Source: Krischvirus LF73P4
Direction: 5' to 3' (one strand)
Length of the DNA: 64,000 bases
Sequence record: OZ035795.1
Below the pieces are notes generated by a model. It made no database searches. It had not been told where the DNA came from and saw only the letters and a program-made list of their open reading frames with translations. Below are positions 7,731 to 54,346 of this stretch, piece after piece. Within the stretch, counting starts at the first letter, position 1. Each line of letters opens with the position of its first letter. A program made the translations under genes and the position numbers.

Positions 7731-7758
7731 ATTATACGGGGATTTCTCCCCGTGTCAA
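7731..7758 (-). promoter_or_regulatory. sigma70-type early promoter (PeSL-like)
   Basis: minus strand TTGACA (7753-7758), spacer CGGGGAGAAATCCCCG, TATAAT (7731-7736). Confidence 0.7.
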
Positions 7759-36520: not shown

Positions 36521-36838
36521 ATGAAAATATGCCGCGTTGTAAACAAGTACAATAGCGATTTTGATGTTAACATTCAGCGTGGTACTATGTGGGGAAATCC
36601 ATACACCGCCAAAGAATACGGACGCGAGAAAGCTATTGCATTATACAAAGAGTGGTTGTATAATAAGATTCGAAATGGTGAGATAACACGAGCGCATTTA
36701 GAAGTATTAAGACATATGCGCTTAGGTTGTACTTGTTACCCTAAGAAATGCCACGGTGAAGTATTGGCGGATCTCGTTAATAGAGTTTTCGGCGATACTC
36801 CAGAAAATACGCTTGATATATTAAGTGAGGTAATATGA
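36521..36838 (+). CDS. hypothetical protein, DUF4326-like (recalled family, unverified)
   Basis: GNPY ... CTCYPKKCHG pattern; directly upstream of nrdA with ATGA overlap. Confidence 0.5.
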   Translation: MKICRVVNKYNSDFDVNIQRGTMWGNPYTAKEYGREKAIALYKEWLYNKIRNGEITRAHLEVLRHMRLGCTCYPKKCHGEVLADLVNRVFGDTPENTLDILSEVI

Positions 36839-39078
36839 TTAAAAATGTTGTTAAGTCTTCCGGTCTGACTGTTCCGTTTGAAAAAGAAAAAGTAATGAAA
36901 ATTCTGGAAGCGGCAGCCGAAGGTCATAACGTTGATCCATATGAATTGTTTGATATGGTTGAACCACTTCTGACAGAAGGTATGTCTACCAATGATATCC
37001 AGAAAGTATTGATTAAGGTCGCCGCAGATAACATCACGGTAGAAACTCCTGATTATCAATATGTAGCAAGTAACCTTGCAATGTTCGCGCTTCGCAAATC
37101 AGTATACGGTCAATTCCAACCGATTGATTTTTACAGCCATATTGAGCGTAATATTGCAACCGGAAAATATGATCGCGAAATTCTGCAAAAATATTCCCGT
37201 GAAGAAGTGGAATATCTGGAGAAATTCATCGACCATAAACTTGATTTTAAAATGACCTATGCTGGTGCGATGCAGTTAAAAGAGAAATATCTTGTTCAAG
37301 ATCGCAGCACCAAGAAAATCATCGAAACACCGCAATTTGCGTATATGCTGATCGGTATGTGCTTGCATCAAGAAGAGACAGAAAATCGACTTGAACATGT
37401 GATTGATTTTTATAATGCGGTTGCGAATAAGCAAATCTCTCTGCCTACTCCGATTATGGCAGGTGTGCGTACCCCAACACGCCAATTTAGTTCGTGTGTG
37501 GTGATTGAAAGTGATGACTCATTGCAGGGTATTAATGAAACCGCAAATGCAATCATCAAGTATATTAGCAAGCGTGCTGGTATCGGTATCAACGCTGGCA
37601 TGATTCGCGCGGAAGGATCTAAGATCGGGCATGGTGAAGTTCGTCATACTGGAGTTATCCCATTCTGGAAACATTTTCAGACTGCCGTTAAGTCATGCTC
37701 ACAAGGCGGTATTCGTGGCGGGGCAGCGACACTCTATTACCCAATGTGGCATTTAGAGTTTGAAAGTCTGATTGTGTTAAAGAACAATAAGGGCGTGGAA
37801 GATAACCGCATTCGTCATCTTGATTACGGCGTACAGATTAATAACCTGATGGTAGAGCGATTCCTTAAACGGGATTACATTACTCTGTTTAGTCCAGATG
37901 TTGCGGGTGGCTTGTTGTGGGATCTGTACTTCCGAGACGAGGAAGGTTTCCGCCAACTTTACGAAAAACTGGAAAAAGATCCGAGTGTTCGTAAAACTCG
38001 TGTTAAAGCCGAAGACCTGTTTTTAGCGGTGGCAATTGAACGTTTTAACACTGGTCGAATCTACCCAACGTTCACAGACAACATGAACAATCACGGGGCG
38101 TTTATTCGTAATGTAGCACCGATTAAACAATCTAACCTGTGTTGTGAAATTGCACTGCCTACTAAACCGATGGGTCGTGATGATTCAGAGATCAGCCTAT
38201 GCACTTTGGCAGCATATGTTTTAGGTAATTTCGATATCGAAAACATGGAAGAAGTAGAACGCATTGCTATGGTTATGGTGCGTGCACTTGACAACCTGTT
38301 AGATTATCAGGATTATCCTGTAGAACAAGCTCTGACAGCAAAAAAACGTCGCTCTCTGGGCGTTGGTGTTACTAACTTTGCATCATATCTCGCGGATAAT
38401 TTCTTCACATATGAAGACGCTAACGAGTTTACGCATAAAACGTTTGAACGCTTGCAATATGCTCTGATTAAGGCTAGTGTGCAACTCGCAAAAGAGAAGG
38501 GTGCTTGCGAACTGATGCACGAAACACGCTACGGTCGCGGTGAACTTCCTATCGACTGGTACAAAAAGACAGTAGATGAACTGGTTGATCCGGTGTATGA
38601 GATGGATTGGGAAGAACTGCGCGAAGACCTGAAAAAATATGGCATTCGTAACAGTACGCTTTCGGCTCTGATGCCTTGTGAGTCGTCTTCTCAGGTATCT
38701 AACAGCACAAACGGTATTGAACCGCCTCGCGGGATTGTATCGGTTAAAGGATCGAAAGAAGGGCAATTTAATCAGGTTATTCCGAACGTAGAGAATAATG
38801 CTGATGTTATTGACCTGCTTTGGACACTGATCAAGAAAGGTAACAAGCCTTATCTGACACTTGCAGCGATCATGCAGAAGTTTGTAGACCAGGCGATTAG
38901 TTCCAACACATCCTACGATCCAAGCACTTATAAGACTGGTAAAGTCGATATTGCTGATGTGTTAGATGATATGTTGTTCGCTCAACATTACGGTCTGAAA
39001 ACCCTGTATTATGCGAACGTTCGCGACGGTGCAGATGGTACGGAAGACGCTAGCGAGTGTTCATCCTGTAAGCTGTAA
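36835..39078 (+). CDS. nrdA: ribonucleotide reductase class Ia, large subunit
   Basis: N-terminal ATP-cone, active-site region NLCCEIALP, C-terminal Cys pair; 747 aa. Confidence 0.95.
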   Translation: MIKNVVKSSGLTVPFEKEKVMKILEAAAEGHNVDPYELFDMVEPLLTEGMSTNDIQKVLIKVAADNITVETPDYQYVASNLAMFALRKSVYGQFQPIDFYSHIERNIATGKYDREILQKYSREEVEYLEKFIDHKLDFKMTYAGAMQLKEKYLVQDRSTKKIIETPQFAYMLIGMCLHQEETENRLEHVIDFYNAVANKQISLPTPIMAGVRTPTRQFSSCVVIESDDSLQGINETANAIIKYISKRAGIGINAGMIRAEGSKIGHGEVRHTGVIPFWKHFQTAVKSCSQGGIRGGAATLYYPMWHLEFESLIVLKNNKGVEDNRIRHLDYGVQINNLMVERFLKRDYITLFSPDVAGGLLWDLYFRDEEGFRQLYEKLEKDPSVRKTRVKAEDLFLAVAIERFNTGRIYPTFTDNMNNHGAFIRNVAPIKQSNLCCEIALPTKPMGRDDSEISLCTLAAYVLGNFDIENMEEVERIAMVMVRALDNLLDYQDYPVEQALTAKKRRSLGVGVTNFASYLADNFFTYEDANEFTHKTFERLQYALIKASVQLAKEKGACELMHETRYGRGELPIDWYKKTVDELVDPVYEMDWEELREDLKKYGIRNSTLSALMPCESSSQVSNSTNGIEPPRGIVSVKGSKEGQFNQVIPNVENNADVIDLLWTLIKKGNKPYLTLAAIMQKFVDQAISSNTSYDPSTYKTGKVDIADVLDDMLFAQHYGLKTLYYANVRDGADGTEDASECSSCKL

Positions 39079-39086
39079 AATAACTG

Positions 39087-39115
39087 TTGACGCGGGGAGA
39101 AATCCCCGCTATAAT
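39087..39115 (+). promoter_or_regulatory. sigma70-type early promoter (PeSL-like)
   Basis: TTGACG (39087-39092), spacer CGGGGAGAAATCCCCGC, TATAAT (39110-39115); 32-bp identical copy at 39977-40008. Confidence 0.7.
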
Positions 39116-39133
39116 GTGAGGTGAATTGTAAGA

Positions 39134-39983
39134 ATGAATTATTACAATGAGTGGGATAAAGGCGCGGCTAACTGGTTACGTGAACTTATAGCAAACAAAT
39201 TAATTCCTTATGGGTATGTCGATGAAAGATCAATTACAGAAGTCACCCCTAGAGATCTGGAAGGATTTACACAATGTCACTTCTTCGCGGGGATTGGGGG
39301 GTGGTCAAGAGCATTGCAACTCGCTGGAGTACCAGAAACAACAAGGCTATGGGCCGGATCGCCACCATGTCAACCATTTTCAAGAGCCGGAAAGCAAAAA
39401 GGAAAGTTCGACGAAAGACACCTTGCACCGACATTTCTTAAACTCGTGTCAGCGTGCAAACCTCCAATGCTCTTTGGGGAACAGGTTGCAAAAGCTATCG
39501 AAACCGGGTGGTTGGATGATCTTCACGAGGAATTGGAAAGAGAAGGTTACAGTGTCGGGGCTGCGGTATTATCATGTGATATCGTCGGTGCGCCGCACAA
39601 GCGGGACAGACTTTTCTTCGGGGCTATTAACGAGTTGGCAAACACCTACTGTAACGAATATATCAGCAAGATCGCCGGGCAATGCAACGGAGAATGGAAG
39701 CGAGACTTGCAACGGGGAGGAAATCACTAGCGCCGGGAAATTTATCAGAACAAGTGAAGATGTATTACGGTTTTGGGACAGTGGAACAGAGTATCTATGC
39801 AGAGACGGGAAAAAACGAATTGTTGAACCCACGATTCCCTTGTTGGCTGATGGGGTATCCTCAACAATGGGACGATTGCGCGGTTATGGCAATGCGATAG
39901 TTCCTCAAGTCGGAGCACTTTTTATAGAAAGTTTTGTAGGTGCTTACATTGATGCTTGCGATGGATTGTCAAATAGCTGTTGA
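39134..39983 (+). pseudogene. DNA cytosine-C5 methyltransferase (Dcm-like) disrupted by frameshifts
   Basis: frame 2 carries motifs I (FAGIGG), IV (SPPCQPFS), VI (EQV), VIII (RDRLF); motif IX-like LMGYPQQW lies in frame 1 (39850-39879) and motif X GNAIVPQV in frame 0 (39888-39911). Confidence 0.6.
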
Positions 39984-40008
39984 CGCGGGGAGAAATCCCC
40001 GCTATAAT
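39980..40008 (+). promoter_or_regulatory. sigma70-type early promoter (PeSL-like)
   Basis: TTGACG (39980-39985), CGGGGAGAAATCCCCGC spacer, TATAAT (40003-40008). Confidence 0.7.
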
Positions 40009-40039
40009 ACAACCATCAAAAACAAGTGAGGATTTTATT

Positions 40040-40207
40040 ATGACCAAATTAAAATGTGTTGCTGTAGATTTTGAACTAGCTGATAGCTTTGTTGTTGGTG
40101 ATGAATATGATGCTCGACATGATGGGACTTGCTACTACGTCGAGGATGAATACGGTGTAGAATGGGCGATTCTTCCTGATGATAAATGTTTTGAGGTTGT
40201 CGGATAA
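40040..40207 (+). CDS. hypothetical protein (55 aa)
   Basis: SD2 context GTGAGGATTTTATT-ATG; ORF track 39980..40207 trimmed. Confidence 0.45.
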   Translation: MTKLKCVAVDFELADSFVVGDEYDARHDGTCYYVEDEYGVEWAILPDDKCFEVVG

Positions 40208-40380
40208 TGGCTACTGTATGGTTATTGATTGCAATAAGCAATTCAATGTATAATTACGGAAATATGTCAAGCATTGAGTTTGCAACAAAGCAGGATTGCG
40301 TTAAAGCTCGCGAGATTATCCGCGAAGACAATAAACGCTTTATGAATCTATATTGCGTTGAAAAACAAAAGGTGAACTAA
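40207..40380 (+). CDS. hypothetical small protein (57 aa), MATxWLL family A; not in ORF track
   Basis: TAATG-coupled ATG; N-terminus MATVWLLIAIS... Confidence 0.4.
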   Translation: MATVWLLIAISNSMYNYGNMSSIEFATKQDCVKAREIIREDNKRFMNLYCVEKQKVN

Positions 40381-40547
40381 TGGCTACATTATGGTTATTG
40401 CTTTCCGTTAGCGTAGGCGTATATAATAAAGGAACTGTTACCAGCGTAGAGTTTTCATCATATCAAAATTGTTTTGAAGCTGTGCAGGAATTGCAGCAGG
40501 ATAGCGAAATAAACAGAAATACTAAGTTCTTTTGTGTTAAAAAGTGA
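40380..40547 (+). CDS. hypothetical small protein (55 aa), MATxWLL family B; not in ORF track
   Basis: TAATG-coupled ATG; N-terminus MATLWLLLSVS..., paralog of preceding ORF. Confidence 0.4.
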   Translation: MATLWLLLSVSVGVYNKGTVTSVEFSSYQNCFEAVQELQQDSEINRNTKFFCVKK

Positions 40548-40562
40548 TAGTGAGGTGAATTA

Positions 40563-41726
40563 ATGAGCGTATTTAACCGCGAACATGTTGATATTATGAA
40601 CGAACCGATGTTTCTGGGTAGTGGGTTGGGTATCGCTCGCTATGATATTCAGCGTCATCAAGTATTTGAAGAATTAATTGAAAAATCTCTGTCATTTTTC
40701 TGGCGTCCAGAAGAGATTTCACTTGCAACCGACCGCATTCAATATCTTAATATGGGTGACGTTGAAAAGCGTTTCTTTACCGAAAACTTGAAGTATCAGA
40801 CATTACTTGATTCTATTCAAGGTCGCGCACCGTCCGCAGCATTTGGTCCAATTGTATCTGATCCAACTCTCGATACATGGTTGCAAACATGGACATTCAG
40901 CGAAACGATTCATAGCAGAAGCTATACACACATTATGCGTAACTGTTTCATTGATCCGGCTAGTGAGTTCGACCAGATCATCGATAACCCTGCTATCATG
41001 AAGCGAGCGGAATCTATCGGGAAATATTATGATGATGTTCTGGTGAAAATCCGTGAATACGAGGACGCTAAAGAAAGTTTTAGTCGTTCTTCTGAAAATG
41101 AATTTGACCTTGATGCATATTCTGATAGCATTTCGTACGTGGAAGAAACTAAACGCAATCTGATGGAATCACTCTATCTGTGTATGCATTGCGTTAATGC
41201 ACTGGAGGCAATCCGTTTTTATGTGTCCTTTGCATGTACTTTCAGCTTTGCCGAACGTGGTTTACTGGAAGGTAACGCGAAGATCATGAAATTTATTGCG
41301 CGTGATGAACAACTTCACTTAAAAGGCACACAATACATTATTCGTCAATGGCAAACGGGGGTTGATGGTGATGAGTGGAAACAGATTGCGGAAGAACTTG
41401 AAGGCGAAGCAACGAAAATCTTTCTGGATGTTGTCGAGCAAGAAAAAGAATGGGTAGACCACCTATTCGCAATGGGGTCAATTCCTGGCTTGTCACCGGA
41501 AATTCTGAAAACTTATGTAGAATACCTGGCAGATTCCCGTATGCGTGCTGTCGGACTGAAAAGCCCGTTTAGTGTTCGTCGTCATCCTTTACCGTGGATG
41601 CGTAAGTGGTTAAACTCTGACGAAGTACAGAATGCAGCGCAAGAAGTAGAGATTATGTATCTGGTATCTCAGGTTAATACCGATTTAACAGACGATGACT
41701 ACAACCGATTCGGGAAATATCTATGA
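40563..41726 (+). CDS. nrdB: ribonucleotide reductase class Ia, small subunit
   Basis: diiron/tyrosyl radical protein signature segments; 387 aa; SD2-like GTGAGGTGAATTA-ATG. Confidence 0.95.
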   Translation: MSVFNREHVDIMNEPMFLGSGLGIARYDIQRHQVFEELIEKSLSFFWRPEEISLATDRIQYLNMGDVEKRFFTENLKYQTLLDSIQGRAPSAAFGPIVSDPTLDTWLQTWTFSETIHSRSYTHIMRNCFIDPASEFDQIIDNPAIMKRAESIGKYYDDVLVKIREYEDAKESFSRSSENEFDLDAYSDSISYVEETKRNLMESLYLCMHCVNALEAIRFYVSFACTFSFAERGLLEGNAKIMKFIARDEQLHLKGTQYIIRQWQTGVDGDEWKQIAEELEGEATKIFLDVVEQEKEWVDHLFAMGSIPGLSPEILKTYVEYLADSRMRAVGLKSPFSVRRHPLPWMRKWLNSDEVQNAAQEVEIMYLVSQVNTDLTDDDYNRFGKYL

Positions 41727-53102: not shown

Positions 53103-53534
53103 ATGGTTTATCCAACTCCTAGTAAGATTTACATTGACGATACTCATTTTCTTGTTGAAATTATGGGTATAAAGTTTAGTGGTAATGTTAAAATTGTAGA
53201 ATGGGAATTGCACGGTCAACCTGTAACCGATTATGACAATTATATCCCTTTCGGTGGCGATGATAACTTTGTTTCATTCGACCATGAAGGTTACATGAAC
53301 TTTGAGCAAGACGATGTACCTTTGTATCTGGCAATGATGGATATTCCTACCAAAACAGAATATACAGAGGGTGATTGCGATTGTTGCGGATACTACAGCG
53401 TAACAGATATTAAGCTGCCATCCGGTAAAGAACTTTACAAAGAGGATCATTTCGGAAACTGCAATTTTCCGTGTGATTGGCAAGAATTTTTTGAACTGGT
53501 AGAGATTGAGCGAACTTATTTGAGGAAGGGATAA
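53103..53534 (+). CDS. hypothetical Cys-containing protein (143 aa)
   Basis: SD2 context; CDCCGY and CNFPC cysteine clusters. Confidence 0.5.
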   Translation: MVYPTPSKIYIDDTHFLVEIMGIKFSGNVKIVEWELHGQPVTDYDNYIPFGGDDNFVSFDHEGYMNFEQDDVPLYLAMMDIPTKTEYTEGDCDCCGYYSVTDIKLPSGKELYKEDHFGNCNFPCDWQEFFELVEIERTYLRKG

Positions 53535-54346
53535 TGAAGAAAGCATTAGGTTTAATTCCCTATACGGGCAATAAGGAAAAGTTATTGCCTGGTGTTAGTA
53601 AGTATTTCCCTAAGCACTATAACCGCTTTGTCGATGCCTTTTGTGGCGGTTTGAGCGTGTCTCTGTACGTCGAAGGGGATGTTCTGGCTAATGACTATGA
53701 TCACCGCTTAATTGATGCTTACAAAGCGATTGACGAGTGTCCTGATCCGGTTTTTATGATCAAGCGGATTATTGCCGAAAATGGTTTGTCTCGTGATGAT
53801 AAAGATGCTTACATGGCATTCCGTAAGAAGTATAATGAGAATCCAGATCCGCTATCTCTGTTTGTTCTGATTCAGCACAGTTTTAGCAACATTAACCGCC
53901 ATAACCGGAAGGGCGAATTTAATGCTAATTTTGGTCGCCGGACTTTTAACGAAAACGCGGTAGAGCGTGTCCTGAATTTTAAGGAAGAAAACAAAGACGG
54001 TCGAATCAATTTTACGTCTGGTCGTTATGACGAGATCGAGATCTTGCCCGGTGATTTCGTTTATTTGGACCCGCCGTACCTTATCACTTCTGCGGAATAT
54101 AATAAGTTCTGGAGTGACGAGGAAGAGATTAAATTCTATCAGTGGGTGGAATCTATTATGGCGCGTGGTTTTCAGTTTGGTATCAGTAATGTCACGCATC
54201 ATAAGGGAAAGGTAAATGATCATCTTCTTGACTTTATCAAGCGGAATGATCTAAACTGCGTCCTGTTGAATAAGACCTATTGCCTAGATCGTTCAGGTGG
54301 CAAGTCTTCTGATACGCAAGAAGTTTATGTAACTAACGTAGATTGA
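53534..54346 (+). CDS. dam: DNA adenine (N6) methyltransferase, T4 Dam-like
   Basis: FVDAFCGGLSVSL, DPPY motif (FVYLDPPYLITSAEYNKFWS) closely match T4 Dam. Confidence 0.9.
   Translation: MKKALGLIPYTGNKEKLLPGVSKYFPKHYNRFVDAFCGGLSVSLYVEGDVLANDYDHRLIDAYKAIDECPDPVFMIKRIIAENGLSRDDKDAYMAFRKKYNENPDPLSLFVLIQHSFSNINRHNRKGEFNANFGRRTFNENAVERVLNFKEENKDGRINFTSGRYDEIEILPGDFVYLDPPYLITSAEYNKFWSDEEEIKFYQWVESIMARGFQFGISNVTHHKGKVNDHLLDFIKRNDLNCVLLNKTYCLDRSGGKSSDTQEVYVTNVD

Follow-up and report, generated by a model that had tools for sequence, protein, structure and literature searches.

The locus and its flanking repeats

The 64,000-nucleotide stretch of DNA analyzed here (sequence record OZ035795.1, hereafter the window, to which all coordinates refer unless stated otherwise) belongs to Krischvirus LF73P4, an RB49-like coliphage, and carries a disrupted cytosine-C5 DNA methyltransferase gene between two identical promoter repeats. 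An open reading frame (ORF) of 198 amino acids on the plus strand, at 39134–39730, matches the profile PF00145 at 69.4 bits (E = 4.6e-19, cut-off 22), and motifs I, IV, VI, and VIII are readable in its translation (FAGIGG, PPCQPFS, GEQV, and HKRDRLFF). Two further motifs are legible beyond the Pfam match. A motif IX-like segment, LNPxFxxWLMGYP, lies in frame 1 as LNPRFPCWLMGYPQQW at 39823–39870, within an ORF at 39682–39900, and motif X, GNAIVPQV, lies in frame 0 as part of GYGNAIVPQV at 39882–39911, within an ORF at 39210–39983. A preliminary description of the locus had assigned these motifs to the same three frames and had concluded that the gene is disrupted, and both statements hold.

The repeats that bracket the gene are exact over 32 bp (CTGTTGACGCGGGGAGAAATCCCCGCTATAAT, at 39084–39115 and 39977–40008). 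No further copy occurs in the window at up to 3 mismatches, and 100 shuffles yielded no match at all. The likeness extends to 42 nt at 95% identity (39074–39115 and 39967–40008), with a spacing of 893 bp. Both copies contain TTGACG-17-TATAAT, which agrees with the sigma-70 consensus (TTGACA-N17-TATAAT) at 11 of 12 positions, and both hold a hairpin in the spacer, GCGGGGA-GAAA-TCCCCGC, with a 7-bp G/C stem, a GAAA loop, and a folding energy of −15.1 kcal/mol (z = −4.6) that was equalled by 0 of 200 shuffles. In the left copy (39074–39115, plus strand), the −35 box TTGACG is at 39087–39092, the hairpin at 39092–39109 in the 17-nt spacer, and the −10 box TATAAT at 39110–39115; in the right copy (39967–40008, plus strand), the same parts are at 39980–39985, 39985–40002, and 40003–40008. 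The left copy is preceded by TAAAATAA, with an upstream stop codon, and followed by GAGGTG...ATG, and the right copy is followed by GTGAGGA...ATG.

Elements of this kind, termed promoter-early stem-loops (PeSLs), were described in RB49/phi1-type T4-like phages by Arbiol et al. 2010 (PMC2839356). A PeSL combines a near-perfect sigma-70 promoter with a Gn-loop-Cn hairpin, usually lying between the −35 box and the −10 box or overlapping with the latter (PMC2839356). A genome contains about 50 of them on the flanks of variable genes, and their promoter and terminator activities have been assayed (PMC2839356; Comeau et al. 2014, PMC4122927). They also recombine, excising mini-circles (PMC2839356; PMC4122927). 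Judged by their sequence, the repeats flanking the methyltransferase gene are PeSLs, with the promoter, the hairpin, the intergenic position, and the accessory gene of that class. The left PeSL is presumed to be the early promoter of the methyltransferase cassette. The right PeSL, the sole copy in relatives with an empty site, is the predicted promoter of the small ORFs downstream.

In the whole window, a G...C hairpin occupies the spacer of 10 of the 41 near-consensus sigma-70 promoters. All those left of ~23 kb (583–22648) are on the minus strand and all those right of ~26 kb (26255–61561) on the plus strand, a change that appears to mark a divergent transcription switch. A PeSL at 7731–7758 on the minus strand has a hairpin nearly identical to that of the pair studied here (CGGGGAGAAATCCCCG). 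Among the relatives, the left PeSL of KMB43, upstream of an intact gene, is 3 bp longer in its −10 region through an insertion (TATAATAAT, at ~1010–1020 of the retrieved stretch), which may alter promoter spacing or strength. Delraymugoa has a C-to-A change in the stem of its right PeSL.

Comparison with related phages delimits the cassette. A megablast search with window positions 38600–40600 matched 82 phage records, nearly all from Krischvirus (RB49, Phi1, and relatives). Three of the 82 cover the whole query: KMB43 at 99.1% identity, and Delraymugoa and Aragogtheria at 98.1% each. The remaining matches listed contain only the two flanks, joined without the insert. RB49 has an empty site, in which nrdA is followed by one repeat copy and then by the downstream ORF. 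Since relatives carry either the full length or only the flanks, and RB49 retains a single repeat, the 893 bp are a presence/absence polymorphism bounded exactly by the repeats. By inference from PMC2839356, homologous recombination between PeSLs, by way of a mini-circle, would have brought the cassette in and could also remove it. Most of what the preliminary description had said of the surroundings is upheld by these results: the exact 32-bp copies and the cassette between promoter repeats. The relatives that it suggested looking for, with an intact gene (three inserts) or an empty site (RB49 and others), exist. It was right to call the repeats promoters, and it did not recognize them as a known class of element in this phage group.

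The methyltransferase gene is the sole content of the cassette, with no restriction endonuclease, and the neighbors are nrdA and small ORFs. Upstream lies nrdA, for the large subunit of ribonucleotide reductase (36835–39078, plus strand), a 747-amino-acid ORF that the KMB43, Delraymugoa, and RB49 records label nrdA; its stop codon is inside the AT-rich head of the left repeat. Downstream are three small ORFs and then nrdB (40563–41726). The first small ORF (40040–40207, plus strand, 55 amino acids, MTKLKCV...) directly follows the single or right PeSL in all relatives. The other two (40207–40380, 57 amino acids; 40380–40547, 55 amino acids) both start with MAT(V/L)WLL, have a hydrophobic N-terminus, and resemble tandem paralogues, and only the first of them is annotated in KMB43. 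In an otherwise unrelated T4-like contig (1–2852), a homologous methyltransferase (62% protein identity) is encoded just downstream of nrdA-nrdB, and the nrd neighborhood may be a recurrent landing site for the methyltransferase gene. Elsewhere in the window, at 53534–54346, is the intact Dam gene that the preliminary description had reported, a Dam-like D12-class N6-adenine methyltransferase gene (PF02086, E = 8.8e-30).

A second reading frame inside the intact gene

Intact copies of the gene are annotated in KMB43 (283 codons) and Delraymugoa (279 codons) and are colinear with thousands of homologues. The shorter Delraymugoa frame results from a TCA codon that has become TAA immediately ahead of the right PeSL (~1872 of the retrieved stretch). 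In the intact orthologue, the annotated frame, here called alpha, wholly contains a second ORF in another frame, here called beta. The KMB43 beta ORF is in the +1 frame, spans alpha codons 24–255 of 283, and holds the motif IX-like segment. The same +1 ORF is open and conserved in 17 of the 17 family genes sampled, which comprise homologues of 54–69% protein identity from Seunavirus-like, T4-like, and siphovirus contigs and further homologues from N15, epsilon15, BcepC6B, a Rhodobacter phage, a cyanophage, a Vibrio phage, and a Xanthomonas phage. It reads W-x-T-P..., then GRKSL(A/S)PGNL.EQV or repeated WPTP modules, then LNPxxxxWLMGxPxxWD; its predicted peptides include SLAPGNLSEQVK and NELLNPR. 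The alpha frame has a poorly conserved stretch of variable length that is always open, followed by FW..CRDGKxRxxEP..PLAxG..RLRGYGNAI.

Substitution patterns reveal which frame is constrained along the gene. In a codon alignment of six colinear orthologues, mean pairwise variability was measured at each alpha codon position; alpha position 1 is the third position of the +1 frame, and alpha position 3 is its second. Over alpha codons 1–135, alpha position 3 is the most variable (about 0.36–0.63). The most variable position is mixed over codons 136–165. From about codon 166 to 215, alpha position 1 varies most (0.47–0.65) and alpha position 3 least (0.12–0.28). Codons 216–245 are mixed again, and from codon 246 onward alpha position 3 is once more the most variable.

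Protein identity and synonymous divergence, the latter taken as the mean pairwise third-position difference at alpha-invariant residues, follow the same segments among seven orthologues. Alpha identity is 0.76, +1 identity 0.39, and synonymous divergence 0.52 over alpha codons 1–95, and the respective values are 0.72, 0.54, and 0.36 over codons 96–135 and 0.67, 0.62, and 0.18 over codons 136–165. In the linker (codons 166–215) they are 0.38, 0.74, and 0.19. They reach 0.61, 0.64, and 0.25 over codons 216–247 and 0.68, 0.32, and 0.54 over codons 248–270. Beta-frame constraint in the Krischvirus/Seunavirus clade starts around alpha codon 96–136. The substitution periodicity, the suppression of alpha-synonymous change, and the family-wide conservation show dual coding, and the signature is that of two overlapping protein-coding frames rather than a relic or a by-product.

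Database proteins corresponding to the beta frame are numerous. An exhaustive HMMER search of 1.8 billion representatives with the beta-frame peptide of the window (39679–39897) found 435 proteins at E ≤ 1e-3, the best at 2.6e-28, and these are called +1-frame ORFs of related methyltransferase genes; a word-indexed homologue search with this peptide gave no candidates. The peptide also matches phrog_1008, and both phrog_1008 and phrog_31772 consist of nested ORFs and are labelled "DNA methyltransferase". The idea that phrog_1008 is a single-chain family that proves an ancestral frameshift was rejected, as its members are the nested ORFs themselves. In the K1ind3 and K1ind2 records both nested coding sequences are annotated, and RefSeq names both "DNA methyltransferase".

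In more distant phages the +1 ORF is longer. It is open and conserved almost from the alpha start in N15 gp58 (892–1887), epsilon15 (886–2055), and BcepC6B g33 (889–1920), in the coordinates of the retrieved stretches, and other distant phage stretches (for example 868–2145 and 886–1812) likewise have an early-starting +1 ORF. It reads ..SSPxS..ANLSARQAKE..GSTLYKLTWK..RASVRRTS..WPTP..LNPAHSRWLMG., and the overlap is about 250–400 codons. These records annotate alpha alone or give beta as a hypothetical protein. Many database proteins of 220–380 amino acids are such +1-frame ORFs, called from methyltransferase genes. The SSPES-type motif at their N-terminus is an off-frame reading of motif I (LFAGIG), and this N-terminal part may be only partly translated.

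Structure prediction is consistent with a divided enzyme. An AlphaFold model of the intact alpha chain, built from a 61-sequence alignment, has a confident catalytic domain at residues 1–168 and a confident C-terminal helix at residues 258–282, and the predicted local distance difference test score is below 50 for residues 169–253. By Foldseek, the alpha fold matches M.HhaI, M.HaeIII, and DNMTs over just ~170 residues, so that in the model alpha alone looks like a large domain without the small domain. With hhalign, the beta C-terminus aligns to M.HhaI 269–292, motif IX (RKLHPRECARVMGYPDSY), at P = 0.008, a weak lead that uses a manually entered M.HhaI sequence. A chimera of motifs IX and X aligns to M.HhaI 269–310 at P = 0.0012, with the same entered sequence, and is a lead rather than proof. 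On alpha-beta-alpha chimeras the Pfam match was not extended past motif VIII, and since it ends there, Pfam is unable to decide the motif IX question.

A single deletion and its possible explanations

The gene of the window differs from the intact genes of KMB43 and Delraymugoa by one indel, GCCGG--GCAATG against GCCGGAAGCAATG, and by two substitutions. The indel is a 2-bp (AA) deletion at 39678/39679 that shifts both alpha and beta, and the window reads GCCGGGCAATG across the junction. Upstream of it, alpha codons 1–181 are genuine, with motifs I, IV, VI, and VIII, and the last 17 codons of the truncated ORF are out of frame before the TAG at 39728–39730. The upstream part of the beta frame (39210–39678, window frame 0, the alpha +1 frame) runs into the alpha C-terminus and forms the 257-amino-acid ORF at 39210–39983. 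Its downstream part (39679–39900), now in window frame 1, contains ...GRKSLAPGNLSEQV... and the motif IX-like segment and ends in a TAG at 39898–39900, inside the GNAIV codons of alpha. What remains of beta as an ORF is 72 amino acids from the ATG at 39682, the GRKSL...LNPRFPCWLMGYPQQW part, with no obvious ribosome-binding site. The alpha C-terminal part (39679–39983), now in window frame 0, comprises the unconstrained linker, the conserved FWDSGTEYLCRDGKKRIVEPTIPLLADG segment, and motif X, and stops at the TGA at 39981–39983, inside the −35 box of the right PeSL. All of these parts are on the plus strand. One of the two substitutions is a G for A at 39353 (alignment column 318), which changes Thr74 of alpha, next to the PC motif, to Ala; Thr74 is invariant among 61 family members.

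The locus is quite probably a PeSL cassette with a two-polypeptide alpha/beta C5-methyltransferase, broken here by this one deletion. By analogy, the gene is read as a phage orphan cytosine-C5 DNA methyltransferase of the M.EcoHK31I-type alpha/beta architecture. Alpha, 283 amino acids when intact, has motifs I–VIII, an unconstrained open linker, the conserved CRDGK segment, and motif X. Beta, in the +1 frame inside alpha, has the W-x-T-P segment together with the motif IX-like LNPxFxxWLMGxPxxW. On the M.EcoHK31I precedent beta is probably translated separately, and the two chains would associate into an active enzyme. In the window the deletion makes alpha read 17 wrong codons, stop after codon 198, and lose the CRDGK segment and motif X. 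It also fuses the beta N-terminus to the alpha C-terminus, and a remnant of 72 codons is all that holds motif IX. Because the deletion shifts both frames, the enzyme is most likely inactive in this phage, and the replacement of an invariant residue in Thr74Ala is in keeping with relaxed selection.

It is unlikely that the deletion is an artefact of sequencing or assembly and that the phage really has an intact alpha/beta gene. Three relatives at 98–99% identity do have an intact gene, and one indel alone separates the window from them. However, the exact 257-amino-acid product of the ORF at 39210–39983 is on record at NCBI and in an independent Logan read assembly of run ERR12949693, where the 921-bp contig ERR12949693_12 is identical to window positions 39086–40006, including the deletion junction. 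Both ends of this contig fall within PeSL copies, one in each, and a break at an exact 32-bp repeat is what a k-mer assembler would be expected to produce. The deletion is therefore present in the reads, and sequencing error is less likely. The site (CCGG/GC) is not a homopolymer, and the same copy carries Thr74Ala at an invariant residue. Phase variation was considered as a source of the deletion and rejected, as there is no repeat at the site.

Programmed recoding is very unlikely. Two ribosomal frameshifts would produce a single chain from alpha, +1, and again alpha segments, and the long alpha ORF would not be a functional product. Such a chain gives motifs IX and X near-canonical spacing on M.HhaI 269–310, and it extends the phrog_116 match from residues 70–165 to 70–267. 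A single chain uses one frame at a time, whereas constraint acts on the two frames simultaneously for ~30 codons to either side of the linker (136–165 and 216–247), and the CRDGK segment of alpha and the LNP..WLMG segment of beta are conserved on the same nucleotides. The beta frame is moreover open and conserved far upstream of possible shift sites in N15, epsilon15, BcepC6B, and others, and alpha is kept open through a linker of unconserved sequence. No slippery heptamer was seen by eye at either boundary in KMB43 or the window, although no systematic scan was made. The characterized precedent makes two polypeptides (PMC2836561).

Multi-frameshift decay of a single-chain Dcm-like gene, as the preliminary description had proposed, is extremely unlikely. 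Three frames of the window do hold methyltransferase-like sequence, and there is one real frameshift and a substitution at an invariant residue. Nevertheless, intact orthologues differ by one indel, so the claim of at least two frameshifts, and with it that of decay through several, falls away. The motif IX-like segment is +1 in the intact orthologues and in 16 other members from unrelated phage groups, and because the offset is the same in intact genes it is native and not a lesion. A gene with two native frames and one deletion accounts for the three-frame layout, and multi-frameshift decay is left unsupported. The +1 frame is also under purifying selection, unlike a decaying pseudogene. Just as improbable is the view that alpha alone is made and beta is no gene, its conservation a by-product of alpha conservation or of shared frameshifted ancestry: most genome records annotate alpha alone, there is no curated Pfam or NCBIfam beta model, and no fixed beta start codon was found, but the linker has an alpha identity of 0.38 against a +1 identity of 0.74 with a variability peak at the +1 third position, the opposite of a by-product, and +1 conservation holds across phages of Burkholderia, Vibrio, Rhodobacter, cyanobacteria, and enterics.

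Several points weigh against the two-polypeptide cassette broken by one deletion. The motif IX assignment rests on the weak hhalign match to the manually entered M.HhaI sequence. Pfam and NCBIfam scans of the beta-frame peptide and of called beta ORFs gave no match. Searches of PDB sequences with the beta-frame peptide, a profile of the beta C-terminus, and a profile of the IX and X chimera gave no matches either. Candidate beta starts in the window are ATG at 39210, 39216, 39222, and 39516 and GTG at 39552; a search for a conserved beta start or Shine-Dalgarno sequence found no universal site, and the candidates vary between lineages. Depletion of off-frame stops against synonymous shuffles is individually weak, and the alpha-frame test is biased by gene ascertainment, so this gives minor support. 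The case for beta translation in these phages draws on sequence and on the analogy with M.EcoHK31I, and the likeness to that enzyme is one of architecture as described in papers, not of sequence alignment. The Logan contig may share its read set with the deposited genome, so systematic read error may still contribute. Finally, the three fragments might conceivably retain residual activity by reassembly, and split C5-methyltransferase fragments can reassemble (PMC3404938).

Wider distribution and known systems

What first appears as a multi-frameshift wreck becomes a PeSL cassette, a rare but known alpha/beta architecture, and one 2-bp lesion. The point most worth following is that the nested beta may be widespread in a large family of phage methyltransferases and mostly unannotated. 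Scoring covered at least 7,992 alpha homologues, and the nested beta occurs in 17 of the 17 lineages sampled, including T4-like, N15, epsilon15, K1, Burkholderia, and cyanophage members. Most genome records omit beta or label it a hypothetical protein, and no published description of a family-wide nested beta was found in the literature. That the nested beta is the rule in a very large and ancient family of phage and prophage C5-methyltransferases is a tentative proposition, nearly but not quite an even call from the sequences. If it is true, many members co-conserve both frames over 200–280 codons, which would rank these overlaps with the longest examples of conserved dual coding on one strand in bacterial viruses. 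The dual-coding signature suggests that the whole phage family works as two-polypeptide enzymes. This bears on the annotation of beta, on the calling of frameshifts and pseudogenes in such genes, and on the engineering of split methyltransferases. In addition, the series of present, absent, and broken copies in near-identical Krischvirus genomes could be used to probe the role of cytosine methylation in RB49-like phages. 5-Methylcytosine might be a liability in McrBC-positive hosts, which could favor loss of the gene.

The type of cassette and the type of gene are both already known. Like other PeSL cassettes of the same genus, the one described here has near-perfect sigma-70 promoters with N17 spacing, a Gn-loop-Cn hairpin between the −35 box and the −10 box, an AT-rich head with an upstream stop codon, and a Shine-Dalgarno sequence and start codon downstream. 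As in those, two copies flank one accessory gene that varies among near-identical genomes, and the empty site keeps one PeSL. It differs in its cargo, a recognizable DNA methyltransferase rather than an ORFan, and in its position, beside the core gene nrdA rather than deep in the hyperplastic region. Mini-circles have been shown for other PeSLs, and here they are supposed from that precedent (PMC2839356).

Two-polypeptide C5-methyltransferases are few, and a 2012 paper lists M.AquI and M.EcoHK31I only (PMC3404938). M.AquI also divides the conserved motifs between two polypeptides (PMC3404938). Unlike the phage gene, it is split in the variable region into consecutive, non-overlapping genes, and motifs IX and X are both on its small subunit.

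M.EcoHK31I is the enzyme of E. coli HK31 (Lee, Kam and Shaw 1995), as far as it is described in PMC2836561 and PMC3404938. Its alpha chain has motifs I–VIII together with X, its beta chain has motif IX, beta lies inside alpha in another frame, and both chains are needed for activity (PMC2836561; PMC3404938). Several internal beta starts are usable (PMC2836561). The phage gene resembles it in an alpha with motifs I–VIII and X, in a beta with motif IX nested in another frame (the placement of IX being weak), and in a beta N-terminus that seems to vary or to be dispensable and for which several internal starts are possible. In contrast, M.EcoHK31I is a restriction-modification enzyme for YGGCCR, whereas the phage gene is an orphan with no endonuclease in its cassette. 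The predicted target recognition domain of M.EcoHK31I is assigned to alpha, whereas in the phage gene the alpha region between motif VIII and CRDGK is unconstrained and W-x-T-P lies in beta.

The Kagunavirus phages K1G, K1ind1, K1ind2, and K1ind3 (GU196277, GU196280, GU196281) carry a nested pair annotated as "C-specific methylase" and "Mte8-like protein". This pair belongs to the same family, with 55–60% alpha identity and the same +1 nested ORF, and its members fall into phrog_363 (alpha) and phrog_1008 or phrog_31772 (beta). The K1ind3 beta matches phrog_1008 at 1e-64 and the beta frame of KMB43 at 1.7e-18. The Krischvirus/Seunavirus clade differs from this pair in having a shorter linker with one W-x-T-P module and a beta frame that is unconstrained, and closed in some members, over alpha codons 31–95. 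For this last reason the beta of the Krischvirus/Seunavirus clade is probably shorter at its N-terminus than that of Kagunavirus.

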